Virus record (IMG/VR): IMGVR_UViG_3300033143_002040
Span: 99,712-126,561 of that record
From: a virus
Lineage: Duplodnaviria; Heunggongvirae; Uroviricota; Caudoviricetes
Reading direction: 5' to 3' (one strand)
Length of the DNA: 26,850 nucleotides
The notes beneath the pieces are model-generated. The model made no database searches and was not told the DNA's origin. It saw only the letters and a program-made list of their open reading frames with translations. This document shows positions 273 through 23,581 of the stretch, piece after piece. Positions within the stretch are counted from its first letter, which is position 1. Each line of letters begins with the position of its first letter. The position numbers and the translations under genes were made by a program.

Positions 273-602
273 TTACCTACCTAATTGCTGTATGAACTTT
301 TCAAGTGGCATTACTGTGAATCGTGCCTTCAGTGGCATTGTGTAATGCCCTATGCTAGAGAAATTGTACTGCCACTTCAGTTCTCTAGCTATTTCTGTTA
401 TCTTATCTACTGCTGGTTGTAACTCATCTAGTTGTCTGACTTCAATTTCAAACTTAAGTCCACCATCATGTAGAGTCATTAGTTCATTATTAACTCCTAT
501 GTCATAGCTATCTTCAGGAAGAGCATCATATATAGCTTGGATAAACTCTTTCTGTTCATCTGTGTATGGCATGAAGCTCTCTGTTATCTCGTTTGCTTTC
601 AT
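273..602 (-). CDS. Hypothetical 109-aa protein with MKANEITE leader (candidate internal virion protein)
   Basis: ATGA overlap with the upstream ORF; ends in tandem TAA TAA; shared leader motif. Confidence 0.75.
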   Translation of the reverse strand: MKANEITESFMPYTDEQKEFIQAIYDALPEDSYDIGVNNELMTLHDGGLKFEIEVRQLDELQPAVDKITEIARELKWQYNFSSIGHYTMPLKARFTVMPLEKFIQQLGR

Positions 603-946
603 CCTATCACTACTTCAGCGACTAGGTAATCGTCGTTACTTGATTGCCAACCCATGTATAATACATAATTCCTATTCTCACTAAACTTACTCTCTACTGC
701 GTCCTTTACTTCTGCTATGTTTGTTACTACTTTACTTGTCTTCAAGTCATATGTAACTATGCTCTCTGATTCAGTATACATAGAAAGACTTACTACTCTT
801 GCTTTAGGATTATAACTTGAGCGTACTTTCCATTCAAGCGGCTTTAGTAGTCTGCGTAGTTCTTTTATCTTCTGCTTAACTTTCTGCTTCCCAGGATCTT
901 TAAGTCCTTGTATAAACTCCTTCTTTGTTATCTCTGTTAACTTCAT
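599..946 (-). CDS. Hypothetical 115-aa protein with MKLTEIT leader; N-terminus similar to 1418-1732
   Basis: ATGA overlaps at both ends; MKLTEITKKEFIQGLKDP vs MRVNEITDKDKFVGNLKDP. Confidence 0.75.
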   Translation of the reverse strand: MKLTEITKKEFIQGLKDPGKQKVKQKIKELRRLLKPLEWKVRSSYNPKARVVSLSMYTESESIVTYDLKTSKVVTNIAEVKDAVESKFSENRNYVLYMGWQSSNDDYLVAEVVIG

Positions 947-1281
947 ACATGTCCTGGATCAATCATATTAACTCTGTCAACCCAGGGCTTTGCTCTTGCT
1001 TTCTGTTCTTCATCGTCGCTACGCCAGTGTCGCTTCAAGCGATCTGTGAATAGAAACTCGCGAGGTAACTCACGAAATATCCATGTTCCCCATGTAGCGT
1101 TGAAGCCTACGTCAGCTATAATAGCAATTGCAGACCACAAGTACATAGGTATTATAGTGAACCAACTTAGTTCATCTTTATGTGCTTTCAATCTTTGAAC
1201 TGTAGGATATGCTAAGAAGATGCCGCCTAAGATCAACCACGAAGTTAATGCTACTGATAAGATAGTTAGTATAATATTCAT
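943..1281 (-). CDS. 112-aa membrane protein of unknown function
   Basis: Two hydrophobic segments (ILTILSVALTSWLILGGIFLAY; WFTIIPMYLWSAIAIIADVGF) followed by FNATWG..FRELPRE.LFTDRL; ATGA overlaps at both ends. Confidence 0.75.
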   Translation of the reverse strand: MNIILTILSVALTSWLILGGIFLAYPTVQRLKAHKDELSWFTIIPMYLWSAIAIIADVGFNATWGTWIFRELPREFLFTDRLKRHWRSDDEEQKARAKPWVDRVNMIDPGHV

Positions 1282-1421
1282 GTGCTACACTCGCCTCTGC
1301 ATTTTATCTTGCCACAACGACAACTCTTATCTGGCTTAGGTGCGCAATCTCCTTTGCAACTTATCTTGCCGCATCGACAGCTAGATGATTTACGTTCTTG
1401 TTTAATCTCTGATAGTTTCAT
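1278..1421 (-). CDS. 47-aa Cys-rich microprotein not in the ORF track: MKLSEIKQERKSSSCRCGKISCKGDCAPKPDKSCRCGKIKCRGECST
   Basis: Translated by hand. SD GAGGA upstream; its ATG overlaps the upstream TGA and its TGA overlaps the downstream ATG, so it fills the gap exactly; shared MKLxEI leader. Confidence 0.85.
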   Translation of the reverse strand: MKLSEIKQERKSSSCRCGKISCKGDCAPKPDKSCRCGKIKCRGECST

Positions 1422-1732
1422 GTCTTCCTCACTACGTAAACAGCGAATTCTTCTTCTACGTCACCCCTAAATGCTTTGAAAGCCCAATGCTGTGAACTCT
1501 TAATTATTCCCTTTATGTTCCCAATCAGATTACCTTCTTGGGTCTCAATATCCATTCTTGGAGGAATGCCTATAATAGTCGCAAGCTCTTTGTCTGCGTT
1601 GTATGCGTTAAAGCTGTATCCTCGACTTGCTGATTGAATCAATCTATCAACAATATCCTGTAATTCTGTTGCTGCTGGGTCTTTAAGATTGCCAACAAAC
1701 TTATCCTTATCTGTTATTTCATTAACTCTCAT
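1418..1732 (-). CDS. Hypothetical 104-aa protein with MRVNEIT leader
   Basis: ATGA overlaps at both ends; leader motif; N-terminal similarity to 599-946. Confidence 0.75.
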   Translation of the reverse strand: MRVNEITDKDKFVGNLKDPAATELQDIVDRLIQSASRGYSFNAYNADKELATIIGIPPRMDIETQEGNLIGNIKGIIKSSQHWAFKAFRGDVEEEFAVYVVRKT

Positions 1733-2079
1733 AGTAAACTCTTATTCCACGGGCCTAAGTTGCCTTCTCTTGCTGCTTTAATCATAGCTTCAACTACTGT
1801 ATATTCTATGATATTCTCTGCGTTCATTACATCTCTGTACTTTACTGCATCCATCACTAGTGGATCTTCTTTGCTACGTGAACTGTCTATTGCTTTGCCT
1901 TCTAGTTCTAGCCAGCCATGTGCAAACGTTCTACCCTCTATGTTTGTAACAGTTGCGTGTACTAATGTATATTTGTCTTGTACTTCTTCTGATTCACCTT
2001 TGATAAGATCCATCATCAATCGCCACGAATTGTCGAAACAATGTAGTAGTTCTCTTTGTTGTATCTCATTTAATTTCAT
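1729..2079 (-). CDS. 116-aa protein with MKLNEI leader and a putative transglutaminase/papain-like Cys-His-Asp core
   Basis: Start moved to ATG 2079 (TAATG overlap). Motifs HCFDNS (C14), LVHATV, AHGWLE (H54), AIDSS (D65). Confidence 0.65.
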   Translation of the reverse strand: MKLNEIQQRELLHCFDNSWRLMMDLIKGESEEVQDKYTLVHATVTNIEGRTFAHGWLELEGKAIDSSRSKEDPLVMDAVKYRDVMNAENIIEYTVVEAMIKAAREGNLGPWNKSLL

Positions 2080-2399
2080 TAAACCCAAAAATGATGTATG
2101 TCATTCTCTAGATCATGTATCCAAAGATTGCCAGACATCGTATCCCTTTCTAATTTTATATTCTCTCTATTTGACATTCGCAATAACTTACTGCTAATCT
2201 CGTTAGGCCAAATTAACTTCTTAAATACTTCTAATTCTACTGGCTCTGCATTCTCAACTGCGTATGCAAACTCTGTAGCATCATCATATCCCATTTCAGC
2301 TAATGCCTCATCTGAACGACAGTCACCTGCATAAACAAGCCCAGCCTTCGATGACCATTCAGTTTTTGCCCAGTTGTTGTCTATCTCATCTAACTTCAT
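2079..2399 (-). CDS. Hypothetical 106-aa acidic protein with MKLDEI leader
   Basis: Start moved to ATG 2399, preceded by GGAGG; TAATG overlap with the next gene. Confidence 0.75.
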   Translation of the reverse strand: MKLDEIDNNWAKTEWSSKAGLVYAGDCRSDEALAEMGYDDATEFAYAVENAEPVELEVFKKLIWPNEISSKLLRMSNRENIKLERDTMSGNLWIHDLENDIHHFWV

Positions 2400-2832
2400 C
2401 TGTTTCCTCCTCTGTGTAACCAAATCCGCCACAATCATCACAAACCGTTATTGTTTCTTTATCGGGCCACCTTGTAAACGACGGATAATACTCTAGTTGT
2501 CCCTTGCCGACACATGCTTCACAAAAAATACTGTTATCATTGCGTTCTTTGACTAACTGCCTGCTTATATTATTCACGCATTCTTCATTATCCCACAGCA
2601 TATTAATCTTCAATTCATAGTGGGTTCTAATGTCTGATGGCGGTATAATGCTATCACATATGTATTCCCAATAGTTCGTAGGAGTTGTCTCAAAATATAC
2701 TTCAAAGATATAATCTCCACCGAAGTGTAAAGCATCTTCAAGATGTCTAGCAAAGAATGTTCCAACAGTAAAACCGTCTTTCATAATCTTTGCTGCATTC
2801 TCAGCGTTAGTTCCGTGAAACATTATTTTCAT
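2386..2832 (-). CDS. 148-aa putative ADP-ribosyltransferase-fold domain fused to a DnaJ-type zinc finger
   Basis: FHGT...A..I...GF...FFA...DA..F...IFEV...WEY...IPP.DI pattern, then CEACVGKG and CDDCGGFG repeats. Confidence 0.6.
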   Translation of the reverse strand: MKIMFHGTNAENAAKIMKDGFTVGTFFARHLEDALHFGGDYIFEVYFETTPTNYWEYICDSIIPPSDIRTHYELKINMLWDNEECVNNISRQLVKERNDNSIFCEACVGKGQLEYYPSFTRWPDKETITVCDDCGGFGYTEEETDEVR

Positions 2833-3083
2833 TACGGTCCTTCTGCGTATACAGTTGTTTGCGTAGCATCCATGACTCGCCAGTACTTAACAGCCGTCCA
2901 GCGACTAAACAAGTCTTTTGCTGCTTCAACTGCAATTGGAACTGTGTCATACTTAATTGCGTTAGTGTTCCAGCTATCTTCTGGATCGCCGTGTGTATTG
3001 ACATATACTTTGTATATTCCTGTCTGCTGCCGAACGCCTGTTGCATTACCCCTGCGCGCTTCTTCTATTTCTTCTAGTCTCAT
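2832..3083 (-). CDS. Hypothetical 83-aa protein with MRLEEIEE leader
   Basis: SD AGGAG at 3096-3092; TAATG overlap with the next gene. Confidence 0.75.
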   Translation of the reverse strand: MRLEEIEEARRGNATGVRQQTGIYKVYVNTHGDPEDSWNTNAIKYDTVPIAVEAAKDLFSRWTAVKYWRVMDATQTTVYAEGP

Positions 3084-3122
3084 GTTGATGCTCCTATGCG
3101 TAGGTTCGTGTCAGTAAGATTT

Positions 3123-3294
3123 CTTACGATTACTACATCGCCTACTGTTGCTGTACTTAAGAATAACTCATCAGGTTCTCCTTTTACTTGGAAGAGGTTA
3201 CCGAATACCTTACGATTACTACATCGCCTACTGTTGCTGTACTTAAGAATAACTCATCAGGTTCTCCTTTTACTTGGAAGAGGTTACCGAATAC
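3123..3294. repeat. Exact 86-bp tandem duplication (3123-3208 and 3209-3294) in the 3' end of the baseplate wedge gene
   Basis: Both copies read cttacgattactacatcgcc...gaggttaccgaatac; the 86-nt period is not a multiple of 3. Confidence 0.97.
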
Positions 3295-6200
3295 CGAATC
3301 TGATTTCTGTGGTACAATGACCACTGAAGCTACTGTTTTAGCTAGCGTTTGATGAATGAACGTCGATAATTCCGTATAAAAAAAGCTCTCTCCAAAATCC
3401 CAATTTGAGATGTCAAAGTAATCATCAATAGCTGAGATAACTTGTGACTTCACTTCGTTGTCTGTTACTGTTGAGCCGTCTACCTTAACTACTTTAAACT
3501 TGGCTTGCAATTCATCCTCTGAACCAGTGCCAAACAATAGCTTGAACTTACCTGGTTTATAGATGATTTGATCTGACATCATCTTGAATTCTTCTAACTC
3601 AGCGAACTGAATACGTAGATCCTCTGTTGTAGGCTCAGTTGGAAATGGCGCAGTTATATCGTTCGATGCCTTCCATGTAATCACTTCACCATAGTATGTA
3701 TTTGTCAATAGCATTACGTCAATGACGTTAGATATGCTAGGATCAATACGATTGCTACGAGGTGCGTAATGCTTCCATTTGAAGTACAACGGATTCTCTT
3801 GTGTTGGATCTGTTATTACATCTAACTCAAAGCTTCTGCCTAACTTAGCATCGTGATTTGTTGTTACTACAATCTCTCCTGTTAGCGTTGTTAGTTGATT
3901 AAACACATAGAATGTCTCTACTGATGCGTTAGCGTCATAGAAAACCATTCCGTTAAATGCTAGGATAGACTCTGCTGCATCAGGAGAGCCTGTGCCTGCT
4001 GGATTAACGATAGCATCGTGTATAGTTCCTGTGCCTAATGCTGACGGATCAAGTGTCGTAACCATAAGATCAACAATCGTTGTTGCTCTATTAGGATCTG
4101 GACTTGAAATCGCTGACATTACGTAGTCTAAGCCAACCTTGCTTACTACTAATGGGCCAGTGTTAAGTTGATACTCACCATGTTCCCAAAGTCTAAAGTA
4201 CTCGTAGTTATCAAAGTCAGTAAATCTCTCAAAGTATACTGTATCAGGTGAGCCGCCGTTGTCTAGAAATATATCAATCTCTAGTGGCTCATCAGGCACG
4301 CCGTCGTTGTTAGTATCTGGTGAACGTACTTCTACTTTACGAGGATCATTGTAACCGTCTTCGTACATCACTAAACTGATAAGCTCTAGGTTCACTGGAT
4401 CTACTAGTGCTGCTCCTGAACCAATGCTCGGAGGATTAGTTAATGAGTTTGTAGGCAGAATCTCAACACTATCTTGTAGTGCTAGTCCTGTTGATACATC
4501 AATCGTTGTTCTACTTGGGTCTAAGAAGAACTGTGCATCTTCCTTAGACTCGAATATATATCGCTTACCACGAGCCGTGAATGTCCATACTGAATCTACT
4601 GCATCGAATGAACAGAATACTAACCAACTTGCAACCTCTGTTATATCAGCTACAAACGTTTCATCTCCGCTAGGAGCAGAAGCGAAACCATTTGTTGTAT
4701 CAATTACATACCATGCGCCGGCCTTAAGATCACCTGAAACTGTTGCTGCTACGTCATATCCTATGCCAAAGTCTGCTGCATTTGTAATTGCAGTCTGAAT
4801 CAATGTAGACTCTGCTGCGCTAAATGCTGTTCTGAATGTTGGGATAAGATCAAGTGCGTATCTATCATCATTAACTAAATCAGTTAGCTCAATTGGGCCT
4901 GTAGCTGTTAGGTTAGTTGGAGTTGGAGCGACTCCGTCTAGAATGAGTGAGTTAACTACTCGCCATTCTAGAATTGTTGATGTTCCTACTGTTGAAGCAT
5001 TACCGAAGCGTATTTGTGCGCCTGTTCGAAAGAACGTATCTGCTGTAGAGATAGGCACAATGCTATCAACTGATGGGTTCAAATAACCTGTGTCATTGCT
5101 TGTGTTGATAGGTTGTGGTTGCCAGTACACATTACTCGGAGCGGCACCAAATTCTGTATTATCTGTGATATTAAACGCATTTGGATTCAGTGTCAAATAA
5201 CTAGTACGGTAATCACTGTAGTAGAAGTTTGCTAGTTCTTGATTATCAATAAAAGCATCTAGGTTTACGTTTGTAATAGTTGATGCGCCTAATGTTGAAT
5301 CTACTGTAGTACGATCTCCTTCATCATCCTCATACAATGCGCCATCATCACCAAATACTAAGGTATTCTGTGCTGTTCCCGTAGGATCATTGATGTCGAT
5401 GTATCGACTATGTCCTGCGTGTGTGCGATTCAAACTCTTGATCTTGTTAATCTCGTTGCCTCGTGTCAATGGGAATACGTTATAGTCTTCACCGTTGACC
5501 ATTCTGTTCTGAGTGTAGAACACTTGAGGAGCACGCTCTTTGATCTGCCTACTTGTTTCAGTTGGTGCGCCGTTAGCTACTGTAGATTCTAAGCTAAAGA
5601 GTAGTCGTGCGTTGTACTCTTGACTGTCTGCGCCAAAGTACGGAATGTTTATCTCAAAGTTCTGTACATCATCTGCTCGTAGTGTTAGATTCTTGTTAGC
5701 AGAGACACGCATCCATGTACGAAAGATGCCTACAGGAGTATTACCGAAGTTGCCATCAGCAAACTTCAGAGTAACCTGATCGTTCAATCGTGGTAGGACA
5801 TTAAAGATTGTACGTAGAGCATTGTTCAAACTGTTGAAAATAACATTTGTGCCTACTAAGCTAGGGACTTTTGTCCATTGCTCTAATACGTTACCGTCTT
5901 GATCTATTTCTTGTACATATACATCATCTTCGTTAATGTTGTTGATGTTAATGTCTAGTGTTCTATTACGTACAGGCAAATCGTAGCGATTATCCTGTCG
6001 TTCTAGTGTGCCCTGCTTGAACATCAAGAAGAATCCTGTGTTCTCTGAGCCTAAGCCCTCGCCATCATTGCGATAGATAACGTGAAAGTTATCTGCTGGG
6101 TTAGGTGGACGTTCGAAGAAGAACTCACCATCAGTGAAGTCAGGATTGACTACATCAAACGGTACTTGATCTCCTCGAATAGATATGTTAAGATTATACG

Positions 6201-6792
6201 CTACTTCAACGTTAGGTACGTTGTTGAGTCGATAGATGTCAGTAGGAATGTTGCCAATCGTGCCTGTCTTGAACGGACGGCCAAATGGGTTGTTACTATT
6301 GAACACAGCGTTAAGGATAGTTGTGAACTGCTCAAAACTATCAGGGTTATTTACATCATTCCAAAAGATAGTTGTATTGTTTAAGTCACGATCCAAACTA
6401 TCTGTGATTGGCTCATTGGTCTCTACTCCTGACAGCTTAAACAAACCTGATAGAGCTATGTTACGCTTAGGGGTATATGAGAGCATCCTAGCAAGTCGTA
6501 TAATACTATCTCTGCGTTCTGCTGTATCTAAAAAATTCTCTCGCGTGTTCAAATCTGCTCTAAAGTTGAGCGATGTACCGAGATATGACAGCAATTCTAT
6601 TGTTGCAATGAATTCACTTGACTGGATGTAATCGTTGAACGATTCAGGATAGTGGGCACGAACGTAGTCAATAAGACTTGCTCGTAGAGTATCGAAATCA
6701 TATGCGCGGAAGTCAACATCTGAAAACGACTTGTAAATTGTGGTCCAGTCTTCTGCTGTAAACAGATTACTTTGTCTTACTGATTGTGACAT
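3184..6792 (-). CDS. gp6: Large baseplate wedge subunit (T4 gp6 / P2 gpJ-like), 1202 aa as given; 1208 aa ending at 3080 if one repeat copy is removed
   Basis: N-terminus ..DFRAYDFDTLR..YP..FNDYI.SSEF.A.IE.L.Y.G..L.FR.DLN.RENF.DTAERR.S..RLA.M.SY.PKRN; NGG-like NGAPTET...IK..APQ..YTQNRMV.GEDY motif; C-terminal WDFGESF...EL; SD AAGGA; downstream of gp25. Confidence 0.9.
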   Translation of the reverse strand: MSQSVRQSNLFTAEDWTTIYKSFSDVDFRAYDFDTLRASLIDYVRAHYPESFNDYIQSSEFIATIELLSYLGTSLNFRADLNTRENFLDTAERRDSIIRLARMLSYTPKRNIALSGLFKLSGVETNEPITDSLDRDLNNTTIFWNDVNNPDSFEQFTTILNAVFNSNNPFGRPFKTGTIGNIPTDIYRLNNVPNVEVAYNLNISIRGDQVPFDVVNPDFTDGEFFFERPPNPADNFHVIYRNDGEGLGSENTGFFLMFKQGTLERQDNRYDLPVRNRTLDININNINEDDVYVQEIDQDGNVLEQWTKVPSLVGTNVIFNSLNNALRTIFNVLPRLNDQVTLKFADGNFGNTPVGIFRTWMRVSANKNLTLRADDVQNFEINIPYFGADSQEYNARLLFSLESTVANGAPTETSRQIKERAPQVFYTQNRMVNGEDYNVFPLTRGNEINKIKSLNRTHAGHSRYIDINDPTGTAQNTLVFGDDGALYEDDEGDRTTVDSTLGASTITNVNLDAFIDNQELANFYYSDYRTSYLTLNPNAFNITDNTEFGAAPSNVYWQPQPINTSNDTGYLNPSVDSIVPISTADTFFRTGAQIRFGNASTVGTSTILEWRVVNSLILDGVAPTPTNLTATGPIELTDLVNDDRYALDLIPTFRTAFSAAESTLIQTAITNAADFGIGYDVAATVSGDLKAGAWYVIDTTNGFASAPSGDETFVADITEVASWLVFCSFDAVDSVWTFTARGKRYIFESKEDAQFFLDPSRTTIDVSTGLALQDSVEILPTNSLTNPPSIGSGAALVDPVNLELISLVMYEDGYNDPRKVEVRSPDTNNDGVPDEPLEIDIFLDNGGSPDTVYFERFTDFDNYEYFRLWEHGEYQLNTGPLVVSKVGLDYVMSAISSPDPNRATTIVDLMVTTLDPSALGTGTIHDAIVNPAGTGSPDAAESILAFNGMVFYDANASVETFYVFNQLTTLTGEIVVTTNHDAKLGRSFELDVITDPTQENPLYFKWKHYAPRSNRIDPSISNVIDVMLLTNTYYGEVITWKASNDITAPFPTEPTTEDLRIQFAELEEFKMMSDQIIYKPGKFKLLFGTGSEDELQAKFKVVKVDGSTVTDNEVKSQVISAIDDYFDISNWDFGESFFYTELSTFIHQTLAKTVASVVIVPQKSDSVFGNLFQVKGEPDELFLSTATVGDVVIVRYSVTSSK

Positions 6793-6921
6793 TTATCCTT
6801 CTTCCTCTAATTGTTGTAGACGGCTAGTATATGTATACTCGCCTATCACATCACCTATAGCTTTAGCTTCTGCTAGTAGTTCTTTGACTGTTGCTATCTG
6901 TGCTTCTGTATATTCGCTCAT
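6793..6921 (-). CDS. 42-aa ORF not in the ORF track: MSEYTEAQIATVKELLAEAKAIGDVIGEYTYTSRLQQLEEEG
   Basis: ATGA overlap with the upstream stop; its TAA directly precedes the gp6 ATG and its last codons supply the gp6 SD. Confidence 0.7.
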   Translation of the reverse strand: MSEYTEAQIATVKELLAEAKAIGDVIGEYTYTSRLQQLEEEG

Positions 6922-7394
6922 CTTTTCTTCTGCCAATCGCTGAATGCAGCATACTCATCATCTTGTCCGTGCCCAGCATCCTCATGCCCAGCAAAGTATC
7001 CTGCTATGAATGTTTTTTCAGTTTGTTCTTGTTGCATTTCAATCATAGTCTCGTATGAATCACACATACTGCTCAATCGTTGAAATGCTTGTTCTAATTC
7101 TTGTTGTGTAGGCGGAATACTAAGCTGCGGTCGTTTCATTCTAAAGTCACGAGGTTTAGCTGATCCTGCTTCACTTAGTTCTTTGTGTCTCTCTACATGT
7201 ACTGCGAATTCATCTTTGTCCATCCATTGATATGGTGAATGGTTAAGAGTGATTCTCTCCCCTTTAGGAGTAGTCATGTAGTGCCATTTCTTACTGTTAT
7301 TGCCGTCTGATTCAACGTCTTCTTCCTCGTTGTATCCGTATCCGTCTACTACGTACTGAAATCGTTGTTCATTTAGTATGTCTTGAAATCTCAT
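6918..7394 (-). CDS. Hypothetical 158-aa protein with MRFQDILNE leader
   Basis: TAATG and ATGA overlaps with neighbours; leader motif. Confidence 0.75.
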   Translation of the reverse strand: MRFQDILNEQRFQYVVDGYGYNEEEDVESDGNNSKKWHYMTTPKGERITLNHSPYQWMDKDEFAVHVERHKELSEAGSAKPRDFRMKRPQLSIPPTQQELEQAFQRLSSMCDSYETMIEMQQEQTEKTFIAGYFAGHEDAGHGQDDEYAAFSDWQKKR

Positions 7395-7603
7395 TATCGC
7401 TCCTGCGCCATCAGTTCAACCCAATGATCCTTGCCTGCACGATAAGCTTCACGCGCCCAACCTTTTGCATACACTTCAGGACGATATACTCTATTTTTTG
7501 CATCACGAAACCCCTCTTGATTGAATAATAATTCGTGATCTCGTTGGGCTTGATCTGCTATGCTTTCATTTACATCTTGCTTAGTTATTTCATCTAGTTT
7601 CAT
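7394..7603 (-). CDS. Hypothetical 69-aa protein with MKLDEIT leader
   Basis: ATG overlaps the gp25 TAA (TAATG); leader motif. Confidence 0.75.
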   Translation of the reverse strand: MKLDEITKQDVNESIADQAQRDHELLFNQEGFRDAKNRVYRPEVYAKGWAREAYRAGKDHWVELMAQER

Positions 7604-7983
7604 TACTGAGCCTCTATGTTCTGACGATCATATTCGATCTGTAAGCTATCAACTACGTCTAGTGGAACATAATTCAATACTATGTCTAGGCGTAGCGTAT
7701 GTTCTAATTCGCGTACATCAATACTCACCATTGTGAATCTAGGATCACCGCTGATAATATCTACTGCGTCATCGACTACTTGCGCTCTCGTTTCTTCGTC
7801 AAACGGCTCAAATAGCAAGTCAAATATAATTGATCCAAAGTCAGGACGCATCACTCGCTCGCCACGTTGAGTGTGAAACACATTCATTAAGTCCTGTTTC
7901 GCAAGCTTCAAGTTCTCCAGAGTAAATGGAGGTCGGCGCTTGCCGAATGTAGAGTAGCCTATGTTGGTGCCGCGTAACGCCAT
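7603..7983 (-). CDS. gp25: Baseplate wedge protein gp25-like (GPW/gp25 family)
   Basis: KQDLMN.F.T..GERVMRPDFGS.I.DLLFEP...DPR motif; SD AAGGA; upstream of gp6-like. Confidence 0.92.
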   Translation of the reverse strand: MALRGTNIGYSTFGKRRPPFTLENLKLAKQDLMNVFHTQRGERVMRPDFGSIIFDLLFEPFDEETRAQVVDDAVDIISGDPRFTMVSIDVRELEHTLRLDIVLNYVPLDVVDSLQIEYDRQNIEAQ

Positions 7984-8005: not shown

Positions 8006-8020
8006 TGCTGTTATTTATCA
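8006..8020 (-). promoter_or_regulatory. Putative late (gp55-dependent) promoter TGATAAATAACAGCA for the gp25-gp6 operon
   Basis: Core GATAAATA resembles the T4 late TATAAATA; identical 15-mer at 22498-22512, also just upstream of a structural operon. Confidence 0.75.
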
Positions 8021-15606: not shown

Positions 15607-15635
15607 TTGCTATATAAATAGCAGCATGTTATAAT
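15607..15635 (+). promoter_or_regulatory. Composite promoter: sigma70-type TTGCTA-N17-TG-n-TATAAT with late-type TATAAATAGCAGCA in the spacer
   Basis: TTGCTA 15607-15612, TATAAATA 15613-15620, TG 15627-15628, TATAAT 15630-15635, in an intergenic gap. Confidence 0.7.
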
Positions 15636-15659
15636 TGTTTTTTAATCAGAGTGATAATC

Positions 15660-15899
15660 ATGGCCAAGATGAAGAAAGAAGAAATCGCAGTTAAATTTGC
15701 AACATTGTCCGATGTAGCAAAAACCAAAAATATCAAAAACAAGAACAAACGTTTTCTTCCTATGTCACACGTTAGGAACAGCAAACTTCAAGAGTTTGGA
15801 CTGTATGACTATGTGACGAAACGTTACACTTTGGGTAGCATTCATTCTGCGAAAGCTCAAACTATTCTCAAAGAAATGAGAGAAATGTTGGATAAATAA
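15660..15899 (+). CDS. 79-aa basic hypothetical protein (start ATG 15660 or GTG 15651)
   Basis: First ORF after the composite promoter; Lys-rich. Confidence 0.7.
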   Translation: MAKMKKEEIAVKFATLSDVAKTKNIKNKNKRFLPMSHVRNSKLQEFGLYDYVTKRYTLGSIHSAKAQTILKEMREMLDK

Positions 15900-20768: not shown

Positions 20769-21065
20769 TTAGATTATATCCTGTACTGTCTCAGGATTAG
20801 GTACAAATATTTGAACACCAGTTTTAAAATCTCCTATAGGATCTACTAGTGTATCCATGTTGCGTGTAGCTAAAACCCACCACAGTCGAGGTGATCCGAA
20901 GTAATCGTTAGCAAATAGATCAGGTCGTTCATTATACTTTGCTTCTATAGTAACTAGCTCATCATTTGAACTAGGCGGTATTGTTCGTTTTGTCATTACA
21001 TCAAGATAAAAATCCTTGATAGGAGTATTTAAGTATGGTGAGGTTGTCTTATGGATTCCGGCCAA
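20769..21065 (-). CDS. gp53: Baseplate wedge subunit gp53-like / LysM-like tail X protein (98 aa, TTG start)
   Basis: Y.ERPDL.A.DY.G.PRLWWV.A.RN...L.DP..DF..G..IFVP; SD AAGGAG 7 nt upstream, inside the endonuclease gene. Confidence 0.85.
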   Translation of the reverse strand: MAGIHKTTSPYLNTPIKDFYLDVMTKRTIPPSSNDELVTIEAKYNERPDLFANDYFGSPRLWWVLATRNMDTLVDPIGDFKTGVQIFVPNPETVQDII

Positions 21066-21774
21066 TTTCTTTCTCCTTTAATTTACAATTATCAAAATGC
21101 CAACGTTTCATAGCAGGTTTTCCGCCTACTTTTTTACAATGAATACATGACACCTGCTCTTTCTTGATTCCTATGGTCTTATCTTTAATAAGTTGAATTG
21201 TTTTGCTTGTATGCTGATTACCAAAATTTGGTGCTTTCATTCCAACCCTATCTCTACGTAATCGTTTCAATCTATTGGCTTCCTGATTTCCGAACAATTC
21301 CTCATACGTTTTACCTTGGCGTCGATCAGACGCTTTCTGTATCAAATCTCTAGCTATTGTTGACCCAAACAGTTCCGTATATGTTTTATTTTGACGATTC
21401 AACGATAGTTGGGTTCGAAGCTGGTCAGCAATGGCCTTAGGATAACGATCATAATAAGATAAACCTTTGTATAATTGATTATTAACACAGCCAGATATAT
21501 TTTGATTAAGCCAACGATCATCCTCTAGAACATTTAATCGAGTTAAAACTAATTCTTCCCATATAATTGCATGATCTATGTTATCAAATATTTTACGAAC
21601 CTGTATAATATCAGGCTCACCAACTTTTTCACGCATCTCTGATACATACTTACTCGATGTAAAGTATTCATGCCATAGGTCTTCTGCTGGTAAAAGTCTA
21701 TTTGCATAACGAACACCATAATAATGTTTATCATACTCTGTCCAACCAATTCTATATGTATATGGAGAGATCAT
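21049..21774 (-). CDS. Free-standing GIY-YIG (Seg-like) homing endonuclease, 241 aa
   Basis: PYTY.IGW....YYGVR...YFTSS...WE..VL.R....WLN; KTYxELFG repeats, NUMOD3-like PNFG..H, C-terminal CIHC...MKRWHFDNC. Confidence 0.85.
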   Translation of the reverse strand: MISPYTYRIGWTEYDKHYYGVRYANRLLPAEDLWHEYFTSSKYVSEMREKVGEPDIIQVRKIFDNIDHAIIWEELVLTRLNVLEDDRWLNQNISGCVNNQLYKGLSYYDRYPKAIADQLRTQLSLNRQNKTYTELFGSTIARDLIQKASDRRQGKTYEELFGNQEANRLKRLRRDRVGMKAPNFGNQHTSKTIQLIKDKTIGIKKEQVSCIHCKKVGGKPAMKRWHFDNCKLKEKEIGRNP

Positions 21775-22581: not shown

Positions 22582-22611
22582 TTGACAACATAAGTCGTTG
22601 TATGTTATACT
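22582..22611 (+). promoter_or_regulatory. Sigma70 promoter TTGACA-N18-TATACT with extended -10 TG
   Basis: TTGACA 22582-22587, TG 22603-22604, TATACT 22606-22611; SD AAGGAG and ATG 22643 follow. Confidence 0.75.
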
Positions 22612-22642
22612 AGATCACATAATAAGAATAACAAGGAGCAAC

Positions 22643-23581
22643 ATGGCAGCACGCAATAAGTATTTAAATAATAAAGAACTGCTCAAAGAAATCCACATAA
22701 GCAAAACCTCATTTAGTGAATTTGATAAACCAGAATATAATCGCTTCGATGCAATTGTAGAAGAATATGATAACTTATTTACATATTCTGAAAAAGTCGA
22801 AAACACCATTGACAAAACAACAGGCGAAATTACAAGCACCAAAGGCACTGGCGAATGGCATTACCCTGTAGTGCTAGAAGCACAAGAGGCAAAAGCTGCA
22901 CGAATGGCAGCAGAAGATTATGCAGCAAAGATGGCAATTTGGGAACAGGGACCGAAAAAGGCATCTAACAAGCCCAGACTAGTTGACTGCAAATTTGATC
23001 CCACTACCCTAGCAGAAGATGAACTAGTATATCGTGTAATGACATTTGAACACATTCCACTTGAACCTGGCCGCAAGAAGAATCCCCGCAAAGAATCAGA
23101 ATATTACGTCAAACTCAATTTCATTCCTTTCAAACATTACATGATTACAGACATAGCTAAAGAAGAAGCTGTCGAAGTAGGAAAGAGTCATAGTAAAGAC
23201 GGAGAGTATTGTCAGACACATGGCGCAATGACAGACAAGTTAGCAGTTATGTACATGCTATTAGTAGAGCGATACAGCCAACGATCAAACTGGCGCGGCT
23301 ACACATACTTAGATGAAATGAAGGGTCAAAGTCTGTTACAACTATCATCAATGGGTTTGCAGTTTAACGAAGCGAAAAGTAAGAATCCATTTGCATACTA
23401 CACACAAGCATTGACGCATAGCTTTACGCGAGTGCTAAACATAGAAAAGAAAAACCAAGATATTAGAGACAAGATACTTGTAAGCAAAGGACTAACGCCG
23501 AGCTTCTCTAAGCAAATCGAACATGAAAACAAATTACGTCAGATGCGTGAAGACGCAAAGAACACAGCAGAGAATGAATAA
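22643..23581 (+). CDS. gp55: Sigma factor for late transcription (gp55-like), 312 aa
   Basis: KYLNNKELL, LA.M.MLL.ERY..R.NWRGYTY.DEM.GQ, F.E.KS.NPFAYYTQ....F.R.L..EKK.Q.IRD; start moved to ATG 22643 (AAGGAG SD); upstream of gp47-gp46 as in T4. Confidence 0.92.
   Translation: MAARNKYLNNKELLKEIHISKTSFSEFDKPEYNRFDAIVEEYDNLFTYSEKVENTIDKTTGEITSTKGTGEWHYPVVLEAQEAKAARMAAEDYAAKMAIWEQGPKKASNKPRLVDCKFDPTTLAEDELVYRVMTFEHIPLEPGRKKNPRKESEYYVKLNFIPFKHYMITDIAKEEAVEVGKSHSKDGEYCQTHGAMTDKLAVMYMLLVERYSQRSNWRGYTYLDEMKGQSLLQLSSMGLQFNEAKSKNPFAYYTQALTHSFTRVLNIEKKNQDIRDKILVSKGLTPSFSKQIEHENKLRQMREDAKNTAENE

Follow-up and report, generated by a model that had tools for sequence, protein, structure and literature searches.

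A six-residue N-terminal leader on unrelated small genes of a PA5oct-like jumbo phage is a candidate prohead-targeting tag

Introduction

T-even phages have internal proteins of diverse kinds, with only a capsid-targeting sequence (CTS) in common; for encapsidation, residues 1-10 of IPIII are enough, with positions 4 and 7 serving targeting and positions 8 and 10 processing, and T4 gp21 cleaves after Glu in the context L/I-X-E (PMC9026906, PMC3012670). The T4 CTS reads MKTYQEFIAE (PMC8442874). Among the N-termini taken from the T4 genome (gp24, MAKINELLRE; Alt, MELITELFDE; gp22, MLKEQLIAE), it resembles that of gp22, so the T4 targeting peptide also echoes the N-terminus of its own scaffold. 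Here we describe a comparable peptide, M-[KR]-x-x-[ED]-I, that opens nine minus-strand open reading frames (ORFs) interspersed among gp25, gp6 and a giant gp7-like gene in 26,850 nucleotides (nt) of phage DNA (positions 99,712 to 126,561 of IMG/VR virus record IMGVR_UViG_3300033143_002040). We refer to this whole stretch as the window, and coordinates are those of the window unless they are given as genome positions or with the handle of another locus. The best-supported reading of the peptide, to which we assign a probability of about one half, is that it would direct proteins to the prohead.

A second point of reference is provided by the phiKZ-like giant phages (201phi2-1, phiKZ and SPN3US), in which a diverged gp21-like protease cuts many of the head-internal proteins behind Glu and which package a large protein load with their DNA (PMC9026906, PMC5694885). 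These phages differ in belonging to a separate phage group, in their S/A-x-E motif and in their long propeptides, and no short shared extreme N-terminal leader is described for them in the passages of PMC9026906 considered here. Our search of the literature returned no paper that joins capsid targeting or propeptides with the PA5oct-like phage group.

Like the T4 CTS, the leader described here is a short, extreme N-terminal peptide on otherwise unrelated and variable accessory proteins. It likewise resembles a scaffold N-terminus (MRFQDILNEQ compared with MTVKFEHILNEQ of PA5oct, the scaffold here being that of a relative), contains a hydrophobic-x-Glu motif and occurs in a late-type setting, in a phage family with an S77 protease. 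Unlike the T4 CTS, its conserved core spans six residues instead of ten and has a different register, most of its cargos are acidic, another tag (MNEMRKLME-) that is interchangeable with it occurs in the same lineage, and the leader is known from genes alone. The arrangement also departs from that of T4 in that nine or more tagged genes occur per 8 kb, in a baseplate operon rather than in an internal-protein locus.

Results

The nine leader-bearing ORFs had been proposed in a sequence-only reading of the window, and all of them are present with the N-termini given there, their ATGs lying at 602, 946, 1421, 1732, 2079, 2399, 3083, 7394 and 7603. Longer alternatives with TTG or GTG starts exist for two of them, 1729-2079 and 2079-2399; the leader-giving ATG is favoured by orthologues in the former and by an AGGAGG ribosome-binding site in the latter. 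The motif opens nine of the 14 small ORFs located from gp25 to the gp7-like gene compared with two of the ~194 other called ORFs of the contig (Fisher p = 6e-11), and the leader-less ORFs of this interval are five (943-1281, 2386-2832, the doubtful 6793-6936 and two that lie partly or wholly upstream of the window). A link between leader and late-type motif also extended to the two outside cases, genome 70492 (MRINDI) and window 15660 (MAKMKKEEI), each of which lies just behind [GT]ATAAATA. The further claim that no plus-strand ORF carries the leader was nearly right, its exception being 15660-15899 (MAKMKKEEI, with M-K-K-E-E-I at an internal Met), which is preceded by its own TATAAATA.

The bodies behind the leaders, 47 to 158 amino acids (aa) in total ORF length, are mostly unrelated, as had been supposed: BLASTP among the nine detected a single pair, 599-946 and 1418-1732, which share an EF-x-x-LKDP segment. 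Searches of ten small ORFs (a set without 6793-6936) against Pfam and PHROGs gave no match above the cut-off and only weak sub-threshold Pfam matches. The 7394-7603 ORF was compared with PHROGs only and had no match there; tblastn searches of cultured phages with this 69-aa ORF and with a tagged KOW-like domain from relatives (described below) returned nothing useful.

The window is the final 26.8 kb of a 126.5-kb contig that by estimate covers ~35% of the genome, and its genes point to an uncultured PA5oct-like jumbo phage as the source. The gp6-like protein is 45.6% identical to gp6 of the Pseudomonas jumbo phage PA5oct, with Atu_ph07 and RaK2-like phages more distant, and the gp25-like protein is 43-46% identical to gp25 of PA5oct and Atu_ph07. 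Gene order matches PA5oct as well, with the late sigma factor, structural genes and a gp5-like hub, and on the other strand gp25, gp6 and the giant gp7-like gene. A megablast search of the region against cultured phages yielded no match. When gp25 was used as the query for relatives, one locus only was found, while gp6 retrieved 80. These 80 gp6-centred baseplate loci (1.29 Mb; 3214 first-Met ORF starts) represent more distant relatives and do not include the two closest ones, L008 (gp6 87% identical) and L095 (gp6 76% identical), which the gp6 search missed and which were recovered via the 1729-2079 protein.

We regard it as nearly certain that the leader is real and modular. The original proposal of a modular leader on unrelated cargos is borne out by codon variation, by conservation among orthologues, by bodies that occur tagless or behind a second tag and by disorder predicted for residues 1-10 of two cargos. 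Synonymous codons vary among the nine leaders, and in orthologues positions 1-3, 5 and 6 are conserved while position 4 is free to vary. For the 1729-2079 protein we found 51 metagenomic homologues; the 12 full-length single-domain ones that were aligned keep M-[KR]-L-x-[ED]-[IV], with at least seven different residues at position 4 and, in some, extra residues between tag and body. The L095 orthologue of 2832-3083 keeps both MRLKEI and the body, with a linker shorter by 10 residues, orthologues of 273-602 start MKLSEITEGF or MKLTEITESF, and those of 1278-1421 are found in L008 and L009 (80% identical). AlphaFold2 predicted the body of the 1729-2079 protein with a per-residue confidence (pLDDT) above 90 and its residues 1-10 at 43; in the 273-602 protein, residues 1-10 are predicted as coil (pLDDT 40) and the body folds fairly well. 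Constraint thus acts on the protein, with M-[KR]-hydrophobic-x-[ED]-I as a genuine, selected tag.

Tag and body were also found apart. The EF-x-x-LKDP family is tagless in L095, where it has ten tandem members, and tagged in the window (599-946 and 1418-1732). Homologues of 6918-7394, which are mosaics of domains, nearly always begin with the tag and keep M[KR]FxEILNEQ; one of them, P0065, consists of the tag and the C-terminal half only, and in L095 the C-terminal module occupies the same slot between gp25 and gp6 behind the second leader type, MNDMRKIMNLVE. The Cys-rich module of 1278-1421 occurs in L095 without its leader, fused behind a leader-bearing KOW-like domain, and fusions of the tagged KOW-like domain with other cargo similarly have a downstream cargo without a tag of its own.

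Several observations in the relatives and the wider contig concern the same modules. The tandem paralogues of L095 lie downstream of gp6 (L095:11278-14279), measure ~100-118 aa and have in common the N-terminal segment EF-L-x-x-L-[KRT]-[DN]-P. In P0026, P0029, P0051 and L095:9488-9811, a tagged KOW/SH3-like domain (~65 aa; MKLDEITKGKTTLNPPSI...) precedes the Cys-His body or the Cys-rich microprotein, and the junction reads -KLEPV- where the leader of the second gene would be; these proteins look like read-through fusions of neighbouring cassette genes. The leader also forms an N-terminal extension on enzymes of known families, namely a cytidylyltransferase-like protein at genome 33969-34547 (MRLFEL-, with its Pfam domain starting at residue 20) and an NT5C-like nucleotidase at L010:7241-7744 (MKLFEI-, domain from residue 12, with a score just below the Pfam cut-off). 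An 85-aa ORF at L008:8936-9193 combines the leader MRIQDITE- with a C-terminal tail of the KFKDKLSG type.

Since the contig carries neither a prohead protease nor a capsid gene, we took head N-termini from relatives. The comparison set comprised 80 IMG/VR head modules with 2566 ORFs, counted by the same method as the baseplate loci. The strict motif opens 15 of the 2566 head-locus ORFs and none of the 3214 baseplate-locus ORFs (80 loci each), and a wide form of it opens 39 and one, respectively. Every match in the head loci lies on the strand of the head genes, and scrambled control motifs gave 0-3 matches in head and baseplate sets alike. In PA5oct, which among cultured phages is the closest relative, the head module runs portal, gp333, gp332, S77 protease, scaffold and capsid; its S77 gp21-like protease matches PF03420 (7e-25), and 73 of the 80 head loci likewise have such a protease.

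Across the 80 head modules, gp333-like proteins start M[KR]Ax[DE][LMI]LVE, scaffolds MAKK[IL]DE[IL]LSE with variants MRKFEDILAE (MTVKFEHILNEQ in PA5oct), proteases MANKLYE[YF]L and capsid proteins MATKLFES, whereas the portal N-termini show no such motif. The gp333-like, scaffold, protease and capsid N-termini thus carry K-[LI]-x-[DE]-hydrophobic, in the scaffold, protease and major capsid protein in an offset form with the peptide 2-4 residues from the start. Variable extra ORFs just after the portal start MKLSEITESF, MKISEIME and similar, comparable to MKANEITESF and MRFQDILNEQ of the window, with MKLSEITESF opening post-portal ORFs of ~150 aa. No similarity was detected between the bodies of the nine ORFs and any ORF of the 80 head loci.

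The gp333 family (PHROG 13986) is a close parallel to the leader-bearing proteins. PA5oct gp333 (73 aa) starts MKINDIITE (MKAKDLLVE in relatives), is encoded in the head module on the late strand and was detected as a virion protein with ESI-MS/MS (electrospray ionization coupled to tandem mass spectrometry). It differs from the nine ORFs in being a conserved core gene with a fixed place directly after the portal, and no body similarity to them was found. Judged by these N-termini, the tag is a signature of the head-core proteins of the PA5oct-like family, and for this reason the nine small proteins probably enter the capsid in the way that internal proteins do in T4.

As a proxy for virion proteomics, we put the PA5oct genome together from its annotated record, identified all ORF starts that have the wide motif and flagged virion proteins from the published ESI-MS/MS data (PMC7318152). 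Seven such starts coincide with annotated starts or lie within five codons of one. Four of the seven tagged proteins are flagged as virion proteins (gp333, gp279, gp254 and gp104) and three are not (gp103, gp213 and gp408), compared with a flagged background of 93 of 461 (20%; Fisher p = 0.03; leaving out gp213, which has an ambiguous start, gives 0.017). This enrichment offers modest support.

A second leader, MN[ED]MRK[LI]M[EN]xV, opens unrelated proteins of 61 to 648 aa and lies behind GATAAATA wherever this was checked (genome 19977-20162 and 33225-33965; L095:3461-3868 and 3865-4188; L094:12466-14412; L093:7687-8838). It recurs in the contig and in L093-L095, and it fills the gp25|gp6 slot of L095. 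Its K-L-M-E is followed by Ala or Ser, a context that fits T4-type cleavage more cleanly than that of the first leader.

The genes that carry the first leader are insertions into a conserved late operon, because gp25, gp6 and gp7 adjoin in PA5oct, L004 and L012. In this phage, gp25 is separated from gp6 by two or three small ORFs, and gp6 from the giant gene by eleven. Comparable insertions are common only to the closest relatives, L008 and L095, and the presence of leader genes varies among close relatives. Coupling is tight, most junctions overlapping by 1 or 4 nt, and terminator-like sites in the operon show no excess (4 compared with a mean of 3.9 in shuffled sequence).

The T4 late promoter is TATAAATA. 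The motif tGATAAATA at 8012..8020 on the minus strand, 28 nt upstream of the gp25 ATG, has an extended form, TGATAAATAACAGCA, that resembles it. In line with the late-type setting claimed for the operon, GATAAATA stands 28 nt before gp25 and the extended motif also precedes another structural operon. Elsewhere in the contig, the extended motif lies ahead of a virion structural gene at genome 122222(-) and of late-looking operons at genome 19357(+) and 29585(+), so that tGATAAATAaCAGcA ahead of the operon looks like a T4-late-like motif shared with other structural operons; it would presumably act as an actual late promoter. In L094 and L010, tagged cassettes occur among replication and nucleotide-metabolism genes, still directly behind GATAAATA. 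The PA5oct paper (PMC7318152) defines no late-promoter motif and gives no processing data.

Transcribed from the minus strand, the operon begins with the gp25-like baseplate wedge subunit (7603..7983; PHROG 43, 1.4e-18), which has no leader. Its stop is overlapped by the start of the first leader gene (7394..7603; 69 aa, MKLDEIT-; no family match), followed by the 158-aa leader gene at 6918..7394 (MRFQDILNEQ-), whose leader is a near-copy of the PA5oct scaffold N-terminus, by the leader-less, doubtful ORF 6793-6936 and by the gp6-like baseplate wedge subunit (3184..6792; 1202 aa, no leader; PHROG 10646, E = 0). Downstream of gp6, the 83-aa leader gene at 2832..3083 (MRLEEIEE-; L095 orthologue 63% identical) precedes a leader-less, ART-like member of 148 aa at 2386..2832 with a weak CxxCxGxG zinc-finger match (PF00684, below the cut-off) and a 106-aa leader gene at 2079..2399 (MKLDEID-), which has the AGGAGG site ahead of its ATG. 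The leader gene at 1729..2079 (116 aa, MKLNEIQQRE-) has a predicted compact Cys-His fold; a search of the model against the PDB gave no match at E <= 0.001, and only weak papain/transglutaminase-like rows were returned.

The leader gene at 1418..1732 (104 aa, MRVNEITDKDKFVGNLKDP-) places the leader ahead of an EF-x-x-LKDP family body. It is followed by the Cys-rich leader gene at 1278..1421 (47 aa, MKLSEIKQE-), which has two CRCGKIxCxGxC repeats, and by the leader-less member at 943..1281 (112 aa), a probable membrane protein with a hydrophobic N-terminal half. The second leader-bearing EF-x-x-LKDP family member (599..946; 115 aa, MKLTEITKKEFIQGLKDP-) and the leader gene at 273..602 (109 aa, MKANEITESF-) are further members, also on the minus strand.

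At its 3' end, the gp6-like gene contains two perfect tandem copies of an 86-nt segment (3123-3208 and 3209-3294). As this length is not divisible by 3, the last ~14 residues of gp6 (an ancestral-looking -NLTDTNLRIGAST) are replaced by -YSVTSSK. The apparent 100-nt gap after gp6 is due to this duplication, without which the gp6 stop and the ATG of the next leader gene overlap as ATGA. Either the duplication arose very recently or it is an artefact of assembly.

Elsewhere in the window, a gp55-like late sigma factor is encoded at 22598-23581 (family match). A homing-endonuclease-like gene at 21049-21774 lies between two virion structural genes, which in PA5oct are separated by only one small hypothetical gene. 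At 15613-15899, within the plus-strand island of small early-looking ORFs, one ORF, MAKMKKEEIAVKF, stands ~40 nt behind a perfect TATAAATA and may be a late gene set in an early block.

Discussion

The tag described here has been bolted onto unrelated small proteins, whose genes then entered the late gp25-gp6-gp7 baseplate operon by insertion. The same peptide opens the small virion protein encoded after the portal and, at an offset of a few residues, the scaffold, the prohead protease and the major capsid protein, and it would contain the L/I-x-E rule of T4-type (S77, gp21-like) prohead proteases. A mechanism like that of the T4 CTS then seems most likely, in which affinity of the tag for the assembling prohead core would enclose the protein in the head and the tag would possibly be trimmed after Glu. 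Packaging and cleavage of the nine proteins are what we infer; that the cargos are injected effectors is a tentative suggestion.

Several points weigh against targeting to the prohead. The conserved part comprises only six residues, K-L-x-E-hydrophobic is a simple helix-start pattern, and the leader genes lie in the baseplate operon rather than in a head operon. Neither a prohead protease (PF03420) nor a capsid gene occurs in the 126.5-kb contig, and matches to PF07068 there are limited to short capsid-like pieces within small ORFs; the head N-termini of the family, as we read them, come from relatives whose gp6 is at most ~46% identical. Seven of the nine cargos are acidic. The PA5oct enrichment rests on seven proteins, the PA5oct virion list includes metabolic enzymes and is hence no clean head proteome, and gp408 (MKLNEV), encoded among the small genes of the PA5oct terminal-repeat region, is missing from that list.

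Cleavage adds further points on the same side. The sequence-only reading had likened the leaders to substrates of T4-type cleavage after Glu, which stood in part: L-x-E occurs at residues 3-5 in six of the nine, the others having V, A or F at position 3 and one leader having Asp at position 5, and the residue that follows is Ile. Cut positions on T4 N-termini have a small or polar P1' residue, and a cut after Glu5 would leave the bulky Ile there. At residues 6-9, only three of the nine leaders (ITE|S, IEE|A and LNE|Q) have a second site in the style of T4, with hydrophobic-x-E ahead of a small or polar residue.

Among the alternatives, the one that survives best, although we consider it unlikely, is that the tag is a recognition peptide for other machinery, which would either dock proteins onto the baseplate or tail or mark them for degradation or for a chaperone. 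Peptides at the extreme N-terminus are classic signals for proteases or adaptors, the nine genes lie inside a baseplate operon, and some tagged proteins are enzymes (cytidylyltransferase-like and NT5C-like), which are odd as capsid cargo. A degradation or chaperone role could draw on a 774-aa protein of PHROG 4871, an ATP-dependent protease family, which the phage encodes in a late-looking operon, as well as on a DnaJ-like protein, and the PA5oct annotation has ClpX, ClpS, ClpA, ClpP-like and FtsH-like proteins. However, the strict motif is absent from the baseplate neighbourhoods of the 80 relatives and frequent in head modules, where the motif opens the scaffold, the protease and the capsid protein, as well as gp333, a virion protein. 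Nor was a link of the tag to any Clp or Lon gene found, no test having been aimed at one.

Still less probable is that the tag does target the prohead core but that its bearers serve as filler or help assembly and, like scaffold fragments, are broken down or expelled before DNA packaging or in the course of it, and so are not injected. Such a role would suit the resemblance of the tag to the N-termini of scaffold and core proteins, the mostly acidic cargos and the T4 core proteins gp22, gp67 and gp68, which are cut into fragments (PMC9026906). Yet the Cys-His protein with its weak papain/transglutaminase-like structural matches and the nucleotide enzymes of the lineage look effector-like, and a patchy presence among close relatives fits accessory genes and not assembly factors.

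It is very improbable that the shared start is an RNA- or translation-level signal, such as an enhancer in the start region or a site where a translational regulator of late genes binds, rather than a peptide. A-rich codons directly behind the start are a familiar feature of translation, and within the window Ile6 is encoded by ATA in eight of the nine leaders against 30% genome-wide (p = 4e-4) and Arg2 always by AGA. Across relatives, however, Ile6 is encoded by ATT (12), ATA (7) and ATC (4), and Lys/Arg2 and Glu5 also by several codons; as the ATA/AGA bias disappears in these counts, we set the RNA-level signal aside. In addition, upstream regions are not conserved, the amino acid at position 4 changes freely while its neighbours are kept, head proteins bear the peptide 2-4 residues from the start, and late baseplate and tail genes occur without the motif. 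Least credible of all is that the nine genes are diverged tandem paralogues with the N-terminal helix as their sole surviving similarity: although they are clustered and 599-946 and 1418-1732 are real paralogues over ~30 residues, lengths range from 47 to 158 aa, compositions are unrelated, BLASTP finds no further similarity, the EF-x-x-LKDP family also exists tagless, the tag occurs on enzymes of known families, fusion forms have lost the internal tag, and the tag lies outside the predicted folds.

Targeting to the prohead therefore remains the reading that we prefer, and it may be part of something larger. We put forward, again tentatively, that this lineage loads a large and fast-changing set of proteins and enzymes into its heads via the M-[KR]-L-x-E-I and MNEMRKLME- leaders and delivers them with its DNA. 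The two leaders, of six and nine residues, would be interchangeable and both copied from the phage's own scaffold and core N-termini. Candidates for the load would be the papain-like Cys-His protein, the Cys-rich microprotein and the cytidylyltransferase-like and nucleotidase-like enzymes, and the tagged cassettes would spread by insertion into any late operon, the baseplate operon included. If this is true, the first leader would be the smallest known capsid-loading tag, and the injected repertoire would be much larger than that of T4.

The principle is textbook T4 biology, and the advance would be one of scope and variant, not of kind. If the reading is true, a six-residue handle for packaging foreign proteins would suggest itself, like the use made of the T4 CTS, and the locus would show how such a system grows, with a scaffold N-terminus copied onto accessory genes that are free to sit in any late operon. 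Should the tag indeed load heads, sequence alone would mark the packaged, and possibly injected, proteins of the relatives of PA5oct, RaK2 and Atu_ph07, and this would provide a shortlist of candidate early-acting effectors for a group of jumbo phages that is large and has hardly been studied.

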